Assembly (NCBI GenBank): GCA_947630055.1
Contig: CANRGA010000003.1
Location: 1,050-65,049, forward strand
Direction of reading: 5' to 3'
Source of the DNA: an uncultured Bacilli bacterium
Lineage (GTDB): Bacteria; Bacillota_I; Bacilli_A; RF39; UBA660
DNA length: 64,000 nt
Below the pieces are notes generated by a model. The model had not been told where the DNA came from, did no database searches, and was given only the letters and a program-made list of their open reading frames with translations. A program made the position numbers and the translations under genes. Below are positions 33,787 through 49,841 of the stretch, piece by piece; within the stretch, counting starts at the first letter, position 1; each line of letters begins with the position of its first letter.

Positions 33787-35367
33787 TTACTCATCACTTA
33801 ATAAAACAGCATGAATAACAAGTCTATTATGACCATTATTGGCACAAGTAGATAATGTTAATATTTTATCACTAGTAGATACTGGTGTATCAAAAGTATA
33901 AATACTACGATCAGTAATTAAATTTAAAAATTCTTGGAATTTTTTGTTATTACTAAAATCTGCTATTAAATAATCATTAGTATTAGGAATTACATAAATG
34001 GAAAATATTTTCCATTTTAATTTTTGATATAAAGTATCAAATTCGATAATTTGATTTTCAGGATCTTTATACCAATTAGCGCGTTTTGCTTTATATAAAG
34101 TACCAAACATAACACCACTATAATACATATTATGACCAAATATAATGGTATTTTGACTTAAATTTTTAGCATCAGCTCGATAATCCATAAATATCCAGCC
34201 ACTACTATCATTTTTTTTCTTAAAGTTTTTCTTTAAATAATAATCATTATCTTGCGCTTGAACTACAGGATAATCTACTTGCGTATTATTTACTTTTAAC
34301 CATCCAACAGTATCTTCATTTAATTGTAATAAGCCTTGCATATCATCAGTAATTACTAATTCTTCTTTTGGCATTTCTGGTATTGTTTCTTCTTCCTTTT
34401 GCTCTTCTTGCTTTTCCATAGAATTAGCCATTATTTTATTAATATCTTTTTTAATGTCATCTACTTTTTGCATAGAATTATAATTAGAATAGAAAACATA
34501 GAATACTAAAGAACTAATTAAAAATAAAGAAATAAATATACATAATTTAATAGTATTTAAATGAATTTGATTCATTAAATTATCTTGTAAATAATCTTTG
34601 CTATAATCTATAGCGAATTTTATATTATTACGACTATATTTTTTATTTGTCTTTTTTAAATATTCAATTAATTCTATATCATTAATATTTTCTTTTATAT
34701 ATATTTTAATATTTTTTAATTGATTATTATTAATTACTTCTAGTAAATTTTCTAAATCATTTTTATTTAATTTATTGACATATATGGTTTTTAAATATTT
34801 ATTAATACCTATAAATGAAAGAAAATCTTCTTCATCTTCTTTTGATAAAGGAAAATTTAAATATATAGTTGTTTTATAATATAGAGAAGAGAATTGTTGT
34901 AAATTATTTTCTTTCATGAAATTACTTAAGAAAAGAATTTCATTACGTGAGTCTATTTTTATTTTAGCTTTATCAAACATTTCTAAAAGAAAAGTAGGTA
35001 AATTATATAAAGATACATATTTAATATTATTACTTTTAATAATACTATTACAAATTTTATAAGTAAGAATAGATTCTTCTAATAAATGTAAATTAGTAAG
35101 TTTATCTATATCTTTTGTTATTTCTAATACTAAAGGTGCTATTTCTGATTCTTTAATTACTAAAGTATTAATATTATATGTATTTATTAATTCTTGAATA
35201 AAACTATGGAGTAGTTTAGTATTTTGAGCAATATATTCATCACTAAATAAAAGTTCATTTTGACTAATTACATTAGTGTTGATTAAAGCTTTTTGTTCAT
35301 TTTTTAATCTTTTTTTCTCTTGAACAAAGAGCATATTATCTTTAATTTGAAACAATATCTTTATCAT
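33787..35367 (-). CDS. srtB: Class B sortase with about 330-aa N-terminal extension
   Basis: C-terminal sortase domain (…QVDYPVVQAQDNDYYL…IIFGHNM…LTLSTC…RLVIHA). ATG at 35367 follows aggagtag. The longer track ORF would overlap the divergent gene. Confidence 0.75.
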   Translation of the reverse strand: MIKILFQIKDNMLFVQEKKRLKNEQKALINTNVISQNELLFSDEYIAQNTKLLHSFIQELINTYNINTLVIKESEIAPLVLEITKDIDKLTNLHLLEESILTYKICNSIIKSNNIKYVSLYNLPTFLLEMFDKAKIKIDSRNEILFLSNFMKENNLQQFSSLYYKTTIYLNFPLSKEDEEDFLSFIGINKYLKTIYVNKLNKNDLENLLEVINNNQLKNIKIYIKENINDIELIEYLKKTNKKYSRNNIKFAIDYSKDYLQDNLMNQIHLNTIKLCIFISLFLISSLVFYVFYSNYNSMQKVDDIKKDINKIMANSMEKQEEQKEEETIPEMPKEELVITDDMQGLLQLNEDTVGWLKVNNTQVDYPVVQAQDNDYYLKKNFKKKNDSSGWIFMDYRADAKNLSQNTIIFGHNMYYSGVMFGTLYKAKRANWYKDPENQIIEFDTLYQKLKWKIFSIYVIPNTNDYLIADFSNNKKFQEFLNLITDRSIYTFDTPVSTSDKILTLSTCANNGHNRLVIHAVLLSDE

Positions 35368-35494
35368 AACTTCTACTCCTATTATATATAATAACACAAT
35401 TTGACACATTTTAATAAAAAAATTGCAAAAAAATGTTGATTTTCGTATTTTTATGATATAATGAAGACATAATAGGAATAGGAGAGGATAGAAT

Positions 35495-36052
35495 ATGAAA
35501 AAAATATTTGGTTTAATGATGTTGTCATTAGTAGCATTACTACCATTAAGCACAAGAGCAGCAGTTAAAATTACCCCTAATTGTGGACAAGCTGATGCAA
35601 GCGGAGTTATTACTTGTACAGTAGCGTACAATATAACTGATGAGGAAGGAGTAGAAAGTATATCTTTAACTTTAACCGAAAAAGGTGGAGCTGAAGTTGT
35701 AGACGTTGTTGATGCAACTGGATCTGAATGGTCTGTTAGTTCAAAAAATGAAGATAATAATGTTTGGACTGTTATTTTAGCATCAATTGGTGTTACAGGT
35801 GAAGGTAATTTATTTACATTCTCTTATAGACCATCTGGAACTGAAGACTGTGAAGTAGCTATTACTTTAGATGGCCAACAAGTACCAGTTACTCCACCAA
35901 CAACACCAGAAACTCCAAGTGATCCAGATACACCAACTGATAATAAACAAACTGGGGCAACATTACCATATATTGCTTTAGGAGCTATTGCTGTTATTGC
36001 TACAGGTGCATATTTAGCTACAAGAAATAAAGCAAAAATGTATAAAATATAA
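35495..36052 (+). CDS. Cell-wall-anchored surface protein, putative sortase B substrate (NKQTG sorting signal)
   Basis: Signal peptide, Pro/Thr-rich stalk, then DNKQTG plus hydrophobic helix plus RNKAK tail. Divergently adjacent to srtB. Confidence 0.65.
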   Translation: MKKIFGLMMLSLVALLPLSTRAAVKITPNCGQADASGVITCTVAYNITDEEGVESISLTLTEKGGAEVVDVVDATGSEWSVSSKNEDNNVWTVILASIGVTGEGNLFTFSYRPSGTEDCEVAITLDGQQVPVTPPTTPETPSDPDTPTDNKQTGATLPYIALGAIAVIATGAYLATRNKAKMYKI

Positions 36053-36104
36053 TAAGTATTTAAATGCAGTCTTTAAAAAGGCTGTTTTTTTTATGCAAAA
36101 AATC

Positions 36105-36132
36105 TTGACTCTCGGGGGGGGTATTATATAAT
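36105..36132 (+). promoter_or_regulatory. Promoter with G8 homopolymer in the spacer (candidate phase-variable)
   Basis: TTGACT 36105-36110, 16-nt spacer containing G8 (36114-36121), TATAAT 36127-36132. Confidence 0.6.
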
Positions 36133-36184
36133 AATCTTATAAAATAAAGTGCAATGATACGACACATAAAGAGAGGATAAGATT

Positions 36185-37546
36185 ATGAAAAGAAAATATT
36201 TAAAAGGTTTAATAGTAATTGTAGGAATAATTATTGGAGGATTATTCATATATCAAGATATAAATAAAGAAAATAAACCATTACCAGAAGTAAAGTTAAA
36301 AGAAATTGTAAATAAAAATAAATCATTTGCTATAATGATTCAAGAGAATAGTGAAACTGATAAATATCAAGAATATAGTAGTAATACATGGCCTGGAGAT
36401 GATTATGTATTTAAAGAAGCTAAATGTATAGATAATAATGGTAATGAAATAAAAGAAGCAGTAACATATGAAAATGATAAAATAACCTTAACTACAAATA
36501 AGACAGTATATTGTACAGTATATTTTGACAAATCAATAATAGGAAAGTTAAGAGAAAATGAAGAATTGGCCAATAAAGATAATTTAAGTAAAGATTTACA
36601 AGGCGGAATGTATAGATATCAAGGAACAGATGATGTTCATAATTGGATATGCTTTGGAACAGAAGAAAATTGTGGAACAAATGATGATAATATAGATAAA
36701 TATATGTATAGAATAATAGGAATAACAAAAGAAGGGCAATTATATTTATTAAAAGAAACATTTTTAAAAGAAGGAAATATAAATAATTTTGCTTGGAATT
36801 CAAAACATACATTGCCAGACTGTCTAGGAGAAGCTTGTGAATGGCCAAATGTGAATTTATATAAGAGAATAAATGGAAAAAGTAATGGAGAAACACCAGG
36901 AAATAATAGTTATCCTGATTATAAAGGCGATACAAATGTCTTTTTAGGTACAAGTGAACATACAAGTCCGTATGAATACTTAACTGAAGGGAACGAATGG
37001 TTCAATTTAATAATATATCATGACTGGATGTATGGTGATACAAATATAAGTTCTTGGAGTAATTCAAATGCATATAATGGAGATTATATGTATGCTATAG
37101 AAACTGGAAATACATCAACAAAAAGAACTTGGCCATATGAAGATATTCAAACAACATGTAGTGATGATGGTCCATGTACAGAAAAAGATTATACATGGAG
37201 TAAAAGTGTACCAGCAAAAATAGGATTAATGTATATGCATGATGTAGATTATGCATATAAAGATGGAAACCCAAGAAATTATGCAAATGTGGCAAATAGT
37301 TGGATACATTTTCAAAAAGATGGATATAATTTATCTCCATCTTATGAGTGGTTAATCAGTCGTTTTGGCGTAGTTGATTCGAGTAGTACTTCTGTAAAAG
37401 TAATGGATGTTGGTTATAATGGTGCATTAACTACTGGAACTTTGAGTGGCTCAGCTGGTAGTCGTCCAACTTTTTATCTAACACCTAGTATAACTTTAAC
37501 TGGTGCTGGTACAAAAGAAAATCCATATATAATTCATTCTATATGA
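36185..37546 (+). CDS. Surface-protein paralog A (TM anchor, conserved N-module, variable C-terminal module ending ...RPTFYL...GTKENPYII)
   Basis: Paralogous to 40873 and 48384 over MYRYQGTD..NWICFGT...IDKYMYRIIG..KETFLKE...MY.HD..YAY.DG...EWL.SR.G...RP.FYL...GTKENP. Confidence 0.8.
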   Translation: MKRKYLKGLIVIVGIIIGGLFIYQDINKENKPLPEVKLKEIVNKNKSFAIMIQENSETDKYQEYSSNTWPGDDYVFKEAKCIDNNGNEIKEAVTYENDKITLTTNKTVYCTVYFDKSIIGKLRENEELANKDNLSKDLQGGMYRYQGTDDVHNWICFGTEENCGTNDDNIDKYMYRIIGITKEGQLYLLKETFLKEGNINNFAWNSKHTLPDCLGEACEWPNVNLYKRINGKSNGETPGNNSYPDYKGDTNVFLGTSEHTSPYEYLTEGNEWFNLIIYHDWMYGDTNISSWSNSNAYNGDYMYAIETGNTSTKRTWPYEDIQTTCSDDGPCTEKDYTWSKSVPAKIGLMYMHDVDYAYKDGNPRNYANVANSWIHFQKDGYNLSPSYEWLISRFGVVDSSSTSVKVMDVGYNGALTTGTLSGSAGSRPTFYLTPSITLTGAGTKENPYIIHSI

Positions 37547-37654
37547 AATAAAAAGTAAAAAACAGTAAAAAACTACGACTTTAGGTCAATGATTTTACTG
37601 TTTTTTACTTTACTATGGCTTTTTTTATGGTATAATTTTGGCTAGGTGGTAATT

Positions 37655-39139
37655 ATGCGTGAATTTACAGAACAAGAATTAGTAAGAAGAGAAAAGTGTG
37701 AAAATTTAAGAAATCTTGGAATGGATCCTTTTGGTCATAGTATTAATTTAACAAGTAATTCAAAAGAAATAAAAGATAAATATGAAAGCTTTACTAAAGA
37801 AGAACTAGAGAGTAGTAAAAACGAAGTTACTATTGCTGGTCGTATTATGAATAAAAGAAGAAGTGGTAAAGCTGGATTTATGGATATTCAAGATAAATTT
37901 GGTAATATTCAAATATATATCAGTATTAGTGATGTTGGGGAAGCTGAATATGAACTTTATAAGAATTGTGATTTAGGTGATATAATTGCTATTACTGGTT
38001 GGGTTTGTAAAACTAATACTGGTGCTTTAACAGTTCATGCAACTAAATACATTCATTTAGTAAAAGCTCTAAAACCACTTCCTGAAAAATTCCATGGCTT
38101 AACTGATATTGAAGAGAGATATAGAAGACGTTATGTTGATTTAATTATGAATGATAAAGCCAAAGAAATAGCTTTCATTCGTCCAAAAATAATTAGATGT
38201 ATTCAAAATTTTATGGATAATCGTGGTTTTGTGGAAGTAGAAACTCCTATTTTAACAACTCTTTTAACGGGAGCAGCAGCTCGTCCTTTTGCTACTCATC
38301 ACAATACTTTAGATTTAGATATGTATTTAAGAATAGCTCTAGAACTTCCTTTAAAAAGATTATTAGTAGGAGGTATGGAAGCTGTTTATGAAATAGGAAG
38401 AACTTTTAGAAATGAAGGAATGGACCCTAAACATAATCCAGAATTTACAATGATGGAAGCGTATCTTGCTTATTCTGATTTAGAAGATATGATGGATTTA
38501 ACTGAAGATATGTATCAAACTATTGCTAGAGATGTATTTGGTAAAATGACTTACAATTGGTGTGGTAATGAAATTCATTTAGATGGTAAATGGAAAAGAA
38601 TTAGTATGACTGATGCCATAAAAGAGAAAACTGGTATTGATTTTAAAAAAGAAATGAGTGTAGAAGAGGCATTAGATTTAGCTAAAGAGCACAATATACC
38701 TGTAGAAGAACATCAAAAATCAGTAGGACATATTATTAATTTATTCTTTGAAAAATATGTTGAAGAAACATTAATTGAACCAACATTTTTATATGGTCAT
38801 CCAATTGAGATTAGTCCATTAACTAAAAAAGATCCAGAGGATCCTCGATTTACGCAAAGATTTGAATTATTTATTGGTGGTAAAGAATTTGCCAATGCTT
38901 ATACAGAATTAAATGATCCAATTGATCAATTAGAAAGATTTGAAAGTCAACTTAAAGAAAGAGATTTAGGTAATGATGAGGCTAATGATATTGATATGGA
39001 CTTTATCGAAGCCTTAGAATATGGTATGCCTCCAGCTGGTGGTATAGGTTATGGTATAGATCGACTTGTAATGTTATTTACGGAAAGTGAATCTATTCGT
39101 GATGTTATATTATTCCCAACAATGAAGCCGAAAGATTAA
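37655..39139 (+). CDS. lysS: Lysine--tRNA ligase (class II)
   Basis: Class II motifs (…FRNEG…, …[12 protein letters not shown]…). ATG 37655 preferred over GTG 37646. Confidence 0.95.
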
Positions 39140-40872: not shown

Positions 40873-42555
40873 ATGGAAGAAGAAAATAAGAGTGAAAAAA
40901 ATAAAAGAAGAATAGTATTGTTATTTGGTATAGTAGCAATATTAGTAGCCTTATCTGGAGCAACATTTGCATATTTTCAAATAACTACTGAGACAAGTAA
41001 TAGTAAAGCTACTATAACAGGAAGTACACCAGCAAGTGGTTTAGTAACTTTAAATCAAGGAGTAGATAATTTACACTTAAATATAAGTGCTAGTGATATG
41101 TCACTTAATAATAAGGGAAAAGAATATTATGGTACAGATGATGATCAAAATTATGTTGATACAGAAGTATTAGGTACCAAAACAATAGCAGATGTTACAT
41201 TATCTGGTGGCGAAGAAACAACCAAATATAGTTGTACTGCTAAATTAACTGTGTCAAAGGATGAAACAGACACCATGATAGAAGTATTACAACCAGGAGA
41301 TATGATATTACAATTTAAGGGTAATATCATAAGTGAAAAATTAGATTTAAGTGACTTAAAAGATAATAATCCAAAGGAATATAATTTAAGTTTTAAAATA
41401 ACTGGTAATAATAAAGAAGAAATACAAGCATATATTAAATTATTAAACAAAGAAGAACAACAAAATTATTTAGCAGGTCGTAAATTAAATATCGATATTA
41501 CTACATCAGAATTAAAATGTGAAGTTGCATTACCAGATCCAAAGATAGCACAGTTAAGAGAAAAAGATCCAAGTAATACGTTAAGTGAAGATTTACAAGG
41601 AGGAATGTATAGATACCAAGGAACAGATAATGTACCAAATTGGATATGCTTTGGAACAAGAAATGCAGATGAATGTAAAAGTGATCCAGATGGAATAGAT
41701 AAATATATGTATAGAATAATCGGAATAACAGAAGAAGGACAAATGTATTTAATAAAAGAAACTTTCTTGAAAGAAGGAAGTGGAACAACATTTACATGGA
41801 ATGACAAATATTCTGTTGATAGTTCAAGTTCATATTATTGTGATAATGGATTATGCCCAGAATGGAATACAAGTCTGTTGTTTAAAAGAATAAATGGAAC
41901 AAGTAATGGAACAACCCAAGGAACAACAAGTAATAAAGCTGATACCGATATCTTTGTAGATAGTGCCCAATATGATTATTTAAAGTCAGGAGATAGTAAT
42001 AGTGGTGGTAGTGCAAGTGAGTGGTATAATTTAATTGCAAACCATGAATGGTTATATGGAGATACAAATGAAAGTTCAGCAGCAAATAAATATAATGGAG
42101 ATGCAATGTATGCTATCGAAAATGGAGATAAAGAAACAACTCATTATGTAGGAACAAAAGATAATATAACACAAGAACCATACACATGGAGTCAAAAAGT
42201 AACAGCTAAAATAAGTTTAATGTATTTACATGATTATTATTATGGATATTATGATGGTTCTTCAGAAGAAAGTAGAGGAAATGCAGGAAGTTATAGTAAA
42301 TTGGCAAGTAGTTGGTTATTTTTTAAAAAAGATGGATATAATTCATCTCAATCTTCTGAATGGTTGAGCACTCGCTGGGGTGTCTATAGTACGAGTCTCG
42401 CGAATGTCTACGCGTGGTTTGTGAATAATAACGGCGACTGGGGCTACGACGACTTGAGCCTTGCGTACGGCGTGCGGCCTGTCTTCTATCTTGAGTCAAG
42501 TGCAAAAATATCAAGTGGAGACGGAACAAAGGAAAATCCATTTATATTAGCTTAG
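40873..42555 (+). CDS. Surface-protein paralog B with SipW/TasA-type signal peptide and GC-rich VR-like 3' patch
   Basis: The N-terminus ...LSGATFAYFQ resembles SipW-dependent signal peptides. The C-terminal module is homologous to paralogs A and C and ends ...YGVRPVFYLES...GTKENPFILA. Confidence 0.8.
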   Translation: MEEENKSEKNKRRIVLLFGIVAILVALSGATFAYFQITTETSNSKATITGSTPASGLVTLNQGVDNLHLNISASDMSLNNKGKEYYGTDDDQNYVDTEVLGTKTIADVTLSGGEETTKYSCTAKLTVSKDETDTMIEVLQPGDMILQFKGNIISEKLDLSDLKDNNPKEYNLSFKITGNNKEEIQAYIKLLNKEEQQNYLAGRKLNIDITTSELKCEVALPDPKIAQLREKDPSNTLSEDLQGGMYRYQGTDNVPNWICFGTRNADECKSDPDGIDKYMYRIIGITEEGQMYLIKETFLKEGSGTTFTWNDKYSVDSSSSYYCDNGLCPEWNTSLLFKRINGTSNGTTQGTTSNKADTDIFVDSAQYDYLKSGDSNSGGSASEWYNLIANHEWLYGDTNESSAANKYNGDAMYAIENGDKETTHYVGTKDNITQEPYTWSQKVTAKISLMYLHDYYYGYYDGSSEESRGNAGSYSKLASSWLFFKKDGYNSSQSSEWLSTRWGVYSTSLANVYAWFVNNNGDWGYDDLSLAYGVRPVFYLESSAKISSGDGTKENPFILA

Positions 42556-48303: not shown

Positions 48304-48331
48304 TTGACTCTCGGGGGGGGTATTATATAAT
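48304..48331 (+). promoter_or_regulatory. Promoter with G8 homopolymer in the spacer (second copy)
   Basis: TTGACT 48304-48309, 16-nt spacer containing G8 (48313-48320), TATAAT 48326-48331. The ~90 nt to the ATG are nearly identical to 36093-36184. Confidence 0.6.
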
Positions 48332-48383
48332 AATCTTATAAAATAAAGTGCAGTGATACGACATATAAAGAGAGGATAGGATT

Positions 48384-49841
48384 ATGAAAGAAAAATATTT
48401 AAAAAGTTTAATAGTAATTGTAGTAGTAAGTTTAATGGGAATATTTATATATCAAAATATAAATAAAGAAAATAAACCATTACCAGAAGTAAAGTTAAAA
48501 AAAATTGTAAATAAAAATAAATCTTTTGCCATAATGATCCAAGAAAAAAGTGAAACTGATAAATATCAAGAATATGATAGTAATACATGGCCAGGAGATG
48601 ATTATAAATTCAAAGAAGCTAAATGTATAGATAATAATGGTAATGAAATAAAAGAAGCAGTAACATATGAAGAAAGTAAAATAACATTAACTACAAATAA
48701 GACAGTATATTGTACAGTATACTTTGATAAATCACTAATAGGTAAATTAAGAGAAGCAGATACAAACAAAAATTTAAGTACAGATATACAAGGAGATATG
48801 TATAGATATCAAGGAACAGATGATGTTCATAATTGGATATGTTTTGGAACGACAAATAATTGTGGAACAAATGAAACAGATAATGATGGGGATAGTATAC
48901 CAGATGGAATAGATAAATATATGTACAGGATAATAGGAGTAACAAAAGAGGGACAATTAAAATTAATAAAAGAAACATTTTTAAAAGAAGATAATAAAAT
49001 TATACCGCTTCAATGGAATAATGTTGCAAAGATAAGTCAGCCTTATACAGGAGTAGATAATGATAAATGTGATGGAACAAATTGTGATTGGCCTAATTCA
49101 ATGTTATTTAAAAGATTAAATGGTTTAAATAATGATGAAACTACAAAGGGAAATAAGGGTAATTCAGAAATATTTATTGATAGTGAATATTATAATTATT
49201 TAAAATCAGGTGATGGAAGTGGATTAGACAATACGACACCAAGTACATGGTATAATATAATAGAAAATCATAATTGGAAATATGGAGATATTTTTGATAG
49301 CGTTTGGGATGCAATACCTCATAATGCAGCTTCTTATGATGGTGATGCTGCATATGCGATTGAAAGTGGCGAATCTAATACTCAAAGAGTGTGGCCAAAA
49401 ATTGGCCAATCATGTAATAATGAAACACCTTGTGAATTAGAAGATTACACTTGGAAAAATAATAATGTAGAAGCAAAAATTGGCCTTATGTATTTGCATG
49501 ATTATTATTATGCGTATTATGATGGTAAGACTGAAAGTACTCGAGGTAAGCCTGGTAATTCTGGTGTATTAAATAATTGTTGGATAACATATTATAAAGA
49601 TGGATTTATTAAACAAAATAATGGAGATTCTGAATTTTTAATAACTCGTCGAGGAATAACTAAAAATAATCCAAATATTGGTTCCTTTTTAATTAGTACT
49701 TGGGCATATGTCACAACAGACAGTATATATATTGAAATAGGGACATCTATATATTCACGACCAGTTTTCTATTTAACAAATACTATTGATTTGTCTGGTA
49801 ATGGTACTAAAGAAAATCCATTTATTATAGATATTGAATAA
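48384..49841 (+). CDS. Surface-protein paralog C
   Basis: The first ~125 aa are nearly identical to paralog A. The C-terminal module is homologous but diverged (…EFLITRRG…YSRPVFYLTN…GTKENPFII). Confidence 0.8.
   Translation: MKEKYLKSLIVIVVVSLMGIFIYQNINKENKPLPEVKLKKIVNKNKSFAIMIQEKSETDKYQEYDSNTWPGDDYKFKEAKCIDNNGNEIKEAVTYEESKITLTTNKTVYCTVYFDKSLIGKLREADTNKNLSTDIQGDMYRYQGTDDVHNWICFGTTNNCGTNETDNDGDSIPDGIDKYMYRIIGVTKEGQLKLIKETFLKEDNKIIPLQWNNVAKISQPYTGVDNDKCDGTNCDWPNSMLFKRLNGLNNDETTKGNKGNSEIFIDSEYYNYLKSGDGSGLDNTTPSTWYNIIENHNWKYGDIFDSVWDAIPHNAASYDGDAAYAIESGESNTQRVWPKIGQSCNNETPCELEDYTWKNNNVEAKIGLMYLHDYYYAYYDGKTESTRGKPGNSGVLNNCWITYYKDGFIKQNNGDSEFLITRRGITKNNPNIGSFLISTWAYVTTDSIYIEIGTSIYSRPVFYLTNTIDLSGNGTKENPFIIDIE

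Follow-up and report, generated by a model that had tools for sequence, protein, structure and literature searches.

Promoters of paralogs A and C

The window, which is the whole 64-kb stretch of DNA analysed here, has a G+C content of ~25% and contains three paralogous genes for putative surface proteins, A, B and C (Table 1). As read from the sequence, a homopolymer of eight G's lies between the predicted -35 and -10 hexamers upstream of both paralog A and paralog C. The arrangement claimed in the original prediction, TTGACT and TATAAT separated by a 16-nt spacer that holds the G8 run, was confirmed at both loci by reading of the sequence and by a promoter scan, in which each promoter has 11 of 12 consensus matches. 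The two copies are also nearly identical, as had been claimed for the promoter and the 5′ UTR, with differences at 3 of 80 nt between the -35 hexamer and the ATG and at 6 positions over the ~100 nt between the T-run and the ATG. Each promoter is preceded by a terminator-like hairpin of an unrelated upstream gene and leads via 52 nt with an SD sequence into the gene of a signal-anchored protein. The hairpin of copy C was read by eye, and the terminator scan gave no match upstream of this promoter. A search of the 5′ UTRs against Rfam returned no family match. The promoter of paralog B is different and has no G tract, providing an internal contrast within the window.

Table 1. Positions of the promoter elements and the coding regions of paralogs A, B and C in the window
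Feature	Position	Strand	Description
Terminator-like hairpin and T8	36066..36093	+	Belongs to the upstream NKQTG-anchored gene; 8-pair stem; 5′ limit of promoter unit A
-35 hexamer, copy A	36105..36110	+	TTGACT; sequence reading and promoter scan; TTGAC invariant in every related copy
Spacer, copy A	36111..36126	+	16 nt, CTC-G8-TATTA; G8 at 36114-36121
-10 hexamer, copy A	36127..36132	+	TATAAT; sequence reading and promoter scan
-10-to-ATG stretch, copy A	36133..36184	+	52 nt; predicted 5′ UTR of ~45 nt (from an inferred start site); SD sequence GAGAGGA at 36171-36177
Paralog A	36185..37546	+	453 aa; N-terminal membrane anchor, beta-sandwich and large domain with a C-type-lectin-like lead; no Pfam/NCBIfam match
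Paralog B	40873..42555	+	560 aa; C-terminal module common to A and C; different N-terminus (SipW-type signal)
-35 hexamer, copy C	48304..48309	+	TTGACT; sequence reading and promoter scan
Spacer, copy C	48310..48325	+	16 nt, CTC-G8-TATTA; G8 at 48313-48320
-10 hexamer, copy C	48326..48331	+	TATAAT; sequence reading and promoter scan
Paralog C	48384..49841	+	485 aa; overall identity to A 55%; DNA identity to A ~90% in the 5′ part of the gene

The supposed rarity of G and C runs was borne out as well. Runs of at least seven occur only at the two promoters when both strands of the 64-kb window are searched, with four overlapping G-run matches observed vs. a mean of 0.39 in shuffled sequences. Lowering the length to at least six gives three G runs and no C run in the window.

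A perfect 10-nt inverted repeat (ATAATCTTAT / ATAAGATTAT; 36131-36140 and 36177-36186) pairs the -10 region with the spacer between the SD sequence and the ATG. Its counterpart in copy C is located at 48330-48339 and 48376-48385, where an A>G change would retain a G-U pair. The left arm of the repeat is transcribed only in part if the start site is as predicted. A role of the G tract at the RNA level was also considered and is unlikely, because the tract lies upstream of the predicted start site.

The A/C protein family and its genomic surroundings

Paralogs A and C belong to a family of 471 clusters (E ≤ 0.001), for which no sequence match was found in Pfam, NCBIfam or the PDB. Look-ups of the exact A and C proteins also returned no match. 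In the AlphaFold model of paralog A, computed with 62 homologues (pLDDT 88.5, pTM 0.85), a transmembrane helix (residues 3-26) and a linker that is disordered come before a small beta-sandwich and a domain of ~310 residues; the beta-rich domains are predicted to be extracellular, and there is no repeat region. The sole significant fold match of the model in the PDB is the Thomasclavelia ramosa IgA peptidase (9qa6, E 1.2e-6), with a TM score of only 0.31, and C-type lectin domains are weak fold matches. The N-terminal domain of the T. ramosa IgA peptidase is C-type-lectin-like (PMC12237041). The A/C family does not represent the protease domain of such an enzyme, because it lacks the HExxH motif. 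As a lead from the model, the family may bind ligands outside the cell.

The region upstream of locus A (33787-36052) contains the genes of a sortase whose N-terminus has a long extension and of a small protein bearing a sorting signal of the NKQTG type; the organism therefore seems to be walled, unlike the mycoplasmas. In two contigs of relatives (L124, ~500-600, and L125, ~490-600), members of the family that have no G tract are accompanied by a divergent gene of the HTH_3 (XRE) type encoding 74-80 aa, and a palindrome overlaps the TTGACT. Thus, the A/C family also appears to be under repressor-type control.

A promoter cassette in related genomes

One genome per species was scanned for the pattern CTTGAC, 1-6 nt, at least six G's, 0-9 nt and TATTATATAAT. 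The scan gave at least 125 matches in at least 106 stretches, nearly all of them in ~17 rabbit-gut 'Lapin' MAGs titled 'uncultured Bacilli bacterium', and the matches listed are from species other than that of the window. Cassette copies number more than 120 in these ~17 MAGs, with a maximum of 22 listed for a single MAG. The element had originally been viewed as a pair of copies. Both copies are real, but they belong to a cassette of many copies and several species, and in the MAGs (up to 22 listed copies) many paralogs each have their own tract-bearing promoter.

Comparisons of the copies within one MAG showed that the hexamers and the bases adjacent to the tract are identical in all copies and that the number of G's alone varies (G7-G10, among the matches listed). 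Among the matches listed, Lapin-027__bin69 has one G7, 11 G8 and 10 G9 tracts, and Lapin-001__bin81 has nine G8 and nine G9 tracts together with one that an A interrupts. In Lapin-016__bin44 there are one G7, 13 G8, two G9 and one G10 tract, and Lapin-032__bin38 has two G9 and eight G10 tracts, again among the matches listed. In the 635 kb around the listed loci, all 120 of the 120 G or C runs of at least seven are located within the G-tract promoter context. Interrupted tracts account for 2 of ~128 at a G+C content of 25%, a proportion that is partly biased by the selection of loci for holding a pure tract. The fetched loci showed no orthologous flanks across species. A mobile element was rejected as an explanation of the repeat, which stops in unique DNA on the left and enters the gene on the right, without terminal repeats.

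The copy number in the window's own species was approached through sequencing depth. In rabbit-gut metagenome contigs, the flanks have a depth of ~5x, and the contigs covering the 50 nt around the promoter (36097-36150) together reach 400-600x. Similarly, the species-specific core unitig (TTGACTCTC-G8-TATTATATAATAATCTTAT) has a depth of 64-78x vs. 3-6x in the flanks, a pattern common to five runs (four samples, two studies). The depth ratio of the unitigs gives an estimate of ~13-22 cassette copies per genome, if the exact core is not shared with another organism.

A downstream ORF is readable in 86 of 116 cassette copies (the listed copies of the rabbit MAGs and those of the window), and many of the other 30 copies lie where a contig stops, since the repeat interrupts assembly. 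Of these 86 ORFs, nearly all have an N-terminus in which a hydrophobic helix follows a basic stretch, or a SipW-type signal. By a crude hydrophobicity score, 64 of them are flagged, and most of the others visibly share this type of N-terminus but have a single charged residue within the helix. The N-termini of A, C and the downstream ORFs, such as MKRKYLKGLIVIVGIIIGGLFIYQ, are signal anchors with no lipobox cysteine. According to BLASTP, 59 of the 86 ORFs are homologues of A and C. Judged by these N-termini and by the model of paralog A, the cassette-driven genes are predicted to encode surface-exposed products. In tandem arrays that bear the cassette (L030, L031, L088, L100 (Lapin-032__bin38), L027 and L066), several genes encode proteins that end with ...GFRLVLAF or ...FRLVLS. 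These ends resemble the C-termini of the targets of diversity-generating retroelements (DGRs), and slippage and DGR hypermutation may act on one and the same repertoire.

A motif (GTTAACAAC) occurs ~25 nt upstream of the -35 hexamer in relatives (L001-L106, e.g. L001, L014 and L035) and is absent around the window copies. A second one, GTTATTAAC or GTTATCAAC, lies within the 5′ UTR of the relatives or within their codons 3-5 (MQVINK, MEVINK) and is absent from the window copies. Both GTTAATAAC and GTTATTAAC are present in Lapin-014__bin22. These motifs around the cassettes of the relatives may be sites of a regulator or a recombinase. In the same MAG (L014, L015, L019, L050 and L076), a 7-codon ORF (MEVNNKK stop) and then a leader of ~180 nt come after the G-tract promoter, and the genes downstream of the leader encode SipW-type signals. 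The short ORF and the leader may constitute a control layer of the leader-peptide kind. On the minus strand of L088 (~7923 and ~5903, reversed coordinates), one cassette ends right after the tract (CTTGACTTA-G8-AGAAAGTGCCATG) and the tract of another is interrupted (G4-A-G4); both belong to the few copies that have decayed or been rearranged.

A scan of JGI metagenomes gave 16 matches, which are mostly unrelated G6 promoters from marine and other samples and include one probable relative, L131. This contig (ERZ857965, 29% G+C) has CTTGACACT-G10-TAATATTATATAAT upstream of the gene of a signal-anchored protein. Its sample series differs from the rabbit assemblies used, and it may come from a relative outside those samples.

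Spacer length of the G-tract promoters

The bases beside the tract differ across species, with CC, CT, CTC or none on the 5′ side and TATTA or TAGTATTA on the 3′ side. Despite the differing flanks, the total spacer between TTGACN and TATAAT is 14-17 nt in most species, among the matches listed. In Lapin-032__bin38, the distance to TATAAT is 19-20 nt, and this promoter fits only with a TATTAT three bases upstream as the -10 hexamer. For the promoters of the form TTGAC[AT]-N-TATAAT that lack a G tract in the same DNA, the spacer is 17 nt in 12 cases, 16 nt in 6 and 15 nt in 1. The G-tract promoters, among the matches listed, have spacers of 15 nt (54), 16 nt (43) and 17 nt (6). They fall one or two G's below the 17-nt peak, and the window copies, with a spacer of 16 nt, one G below it. 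Since ordinary promoters favour 17 nt, the G-tract promoters are one or two slips away from the peak. By analogy with known systems, spacers of 15-16 nt beside a peak at 17 nt are the arrangement that would be expected of a dimmer driven by slippage.

Tract length at single loci

Loci A and C were recovered from independent sample assemblies through their upstream neighbour genes. The DNA runs were represented by Logan contigs, which lose rare variants. Among the contigs reading through the tract, locus A has G8 in eight and G7 in one, and locus C has G8 in four of four. A comparison of tract length among strains, as had been suggested originally, thus revealed one G7 at locus A and G8 in the other 12 of 13 at loci A and C. 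The G7 contig of locus A (L116) has a coverage of ~4.6x, and two contigs of the same haplotype (L114 and L117) have G8. The eight G8 reads of locus A comprise seven recovered contigs and an ortholog that is 91% identical, lies beside lysS and comes from a different sample series. A change of the tract at any one locus is thinly supported.

Logan unitigs with the species-specific core provided a view of all copies together. G8 accounts for ~90% of the promoter-core depth, with minor forms at 2.7-9x vs. 64-78x for G8, and the tracts in the window's species are therefore without visible scrambling. The minor unitigs are G6 in sample X4, G7 in X3 and X5, and G9 in X7. They may represent subpopulations with a slipped tract, other paralogs or sequencing errors in the homopolymer. 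Other homopolymers vary in length too, including the T-run of the terminator (T8 vs. T7 among samples) and A-runs in the 5′ UTRs of relatives. As A- and T-runs near the promoters also vary, slippage looks generally active in the lineage, and length variation alone is no proof of function because other homopolymers share it.

The length differences might instead be artefacts of low-coverage Illumina metagenome assembly through poly-G, with a true tract that is fixed at G8 or fixed per species. This explanation is improbable. The G9 to G8 ratios of 10:11 and 9:9 among the 19-22 copies listed per MAG are far above any plausible consensus error, G7 and G10 occur as well, and the same lengths recur in independent contigs. 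The minor variants also differ from sample to sample, although their unitigs are shallow. The conditions for artefacts are nevertheless present, as the organism has a coverage of only 3-6x, the contigs often break at the promoter and the assemblies disagree on the sequence downstream of the locus-A promoter.

The disagreement at locus A concerns three downstream contexts to which the upstream flank and the promoter are joined (L112 and L113 vs. window positions 36185-37700). The 453-aa gene is followed by lysS in the window, a 465-aa gene by a T2SSF gene and a 437-aa gene by rpsJ. The joins diverge beyond the shared 5′ part of the gene (~380-590 nt), and look-ups of the two alternative genes matched their own contigs only. 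The differing joins are either chimeras formed when the repeat was assembled or the outcome of true recombination between the paralogs.

A promoter joined to three different genes would also be expected if the promoter were invertible or mobile, as in fimS, the invertons of Bacteroides or C. difficile or the mpl type of M. penetrans, in which case site-specific recombination would act and the G tract would be incidental. The relatives carry GTTAATAAC and GTTATTAAC, in both orientations, downstream of the promoter. However, the window promoters have no flanking inverted repeats; the sole perfect repeat is located 3′ of the -35 hexamer and spans the -10 to the RBS. None of the 86 copies with readable ORFs (among the matches listed and the window) is reversed, and the different joins can be accounted for by the shared 5′ coding region of ~375 nt, which can confuse assembly. 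Recombination of this kind is thus a very remote prospect.

A conserved family promoter with a fixed tract deserves more weight, but it also appears unlikely. The tract would then be the site of a lineage-specific regulator or a stiff G:C spacer that provides basal strength, and its length differences would be tolerated noise. The prevalence of G8 in the window's species, with ~90% of the core depth and 12 of 13 locus consensus reads, is what such a role would give, and the lengths of other homopolymers vary as well. A regulator site, however, has no need of a pure homopolymer. Two MAGs have G8 and G9 in about equal halves in promoters that are otherwise invariant, and the bases neighbouring the tract change between species with the total spacer kept in most of them. 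Regulator-based control does exist in the family, as some members are controlled by the adjacent HTH_3 gene, and the conserved motifs near the promoters of the relatives (GTTAACAAC, GTTATTAAC) resemble protein-binding sites. Every G or C run of at least seven in the sampled DNA is nonetheless found at this one position.

Slippage as a probable dial of surface-protein expression

We consider it probable that slipped-strand changes make the cassette, which is used throughout the lineage, a promoter-spacer dial like those of porA, tp0126 or Vlp. The G8 run would set the spacer length of a SigA-type promoter, which would serve as the standard cassette of many surface-protein genes. Replication slippage would add or remove one G, leading to a spacer of 15, 16 or 17 nt, and the change in the spacer would alter the joint fit of RNA polymerase to the -35 and -10 hexamers. 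Each gene would thereby have its own heritable and reversible dimmer or on/off setting, and the population would display differing combinations of surface proteins. Genes A and C of the window, with their 16-nt spacers, are predicted to be active at a sub-maximal level. The gain of one G would bring them to the preferred 17 nt, and the loss of one G would leave a weak spacer of 15 nt. We infer that tract length alters transcription and that switching is frequent and reversible.

The slippage switch was originally proposed for the two paralogs. It is partly supported, by the promoter anatomy, the G7-G10 tracts among the copies of relatives, the preference for 17 nt and the surface-type products. 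Switching at A and C themselves would be a candidate property, with G8 in 12 of 13 reads, one G7 and low-depth minor unitigs that hint at heterogeneity. A broader reading, which we put forward tentatively as a real possibility, is that a clade of uncultured gut Bacilli with small genomes has a genome-wide 'phasome'. About 13-22 poly-G cassettes per genome (an estimate; the maximum listed is 22 per MAG) would drive several unrelated families of surface proteins, among them lectin-like proteins and proteins with C-termini similar to those of DGR targets. Each cell would then express a random subset, with DGR hypermutation on top, which would amount to antigenic variation of the mycoplasma style in a walled commensal.

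As a candidate switch, a device known from pathogens appears here as a standard part before many surface-protein genes per genome. Its hosts are a clade of uncultured gut commensals that is functionally almost uncharted, and no paper on phase variation in RF39 came up in a literature search. If the tracts switch, these bacteria would vary their surface combinatorially in the gut, which would bear on IgA recognition, phage adsorption and strain persistence. The cassette is relevant to metagenomics because assemblies break at it. It also offers a simple way to catalogue the variable surface repertoire, since G and C runs are otherwise absent from these genomes.

Comparison with known promoter-spacer switches

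Switches that work by slippage in a promoter spacer are textbook knowledge from a few pathogens (Neisseria, Treponema and the mycoplasmas). The mechanism proposed here is thus already known; what stands out is the scale, with a maximum of 22 near-identical candidate switches listed for one MAG, together with the several protein families, the monopoly of the cassette on G and C runs and the host lineage.

The Vlp proteins of Mycoplasma hyorhinis form a multigene family of surface proteins, in which each gene has a promoter homopolymer between the -35 and -10 hexamers and the genes are independently, and hence combinatorially, on or off. The homopolymer of the Vlp genes is poly(A), and their products are lipoproteins with a lipobox. 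Both systems have one homopolymer promoter per gene, and the Vlp family is likewise a surface multigene family, from a relative of the Bacilli with a reduced genome. In contrast to the poly(A) and the lipobox of the Vlp system, the cassette has poly(G), and the products lack a lipobox and carry either a signal anchor that looks uncleaved or a signal of the SipW type. A Vlp-type lipoprotein with size variation by tandem repeats was not encountered, as there is no lipobox and no repeat region in the model. A sortase is also present here, implying a cell wall.

The porA gene of Neisseria meningitidis resembles the cassette in having a G homopolymer within the spacer of a surface-protein gene's promoter, which is of the sigma-70 type. 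With 11 G's between the -35 and -10 hexamers, expression of porA is high, and it is 2.2-fold lower with 10 G's and 13-fold lower with 9 G's (PMC3639595). However, porA is a single gene of a Gram-negative pathogen with 9-11 G's, whereas the tracts here have 7-10 G's in a cassette present ~13-22 times per genome, as estimated from depth. The host here is an uncultured gut Bacilli lineage of low G+C content, and the protein family is different.

In Treponema pallidum, the tract of tp0126 sits between the -35 hexamer and the -10 hexamer with the best expression at a spacer of 17 nt, and the tpr genes (E, G, J and L) have a variable promoter poly-G, the lengths of which vary within isolates (PMC7864442). 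The tp0126 and tpr systems are similar to the cassette in that several paralogous surface-protein genes each have a promoter poly-G (7-12). However, T. pallidum, a pathogenic spirochaete, has about a dozen tracts at varied positions, whereas here many genes and several protein families are served by one near-identical cassette, and the length differences are read among paralogs.
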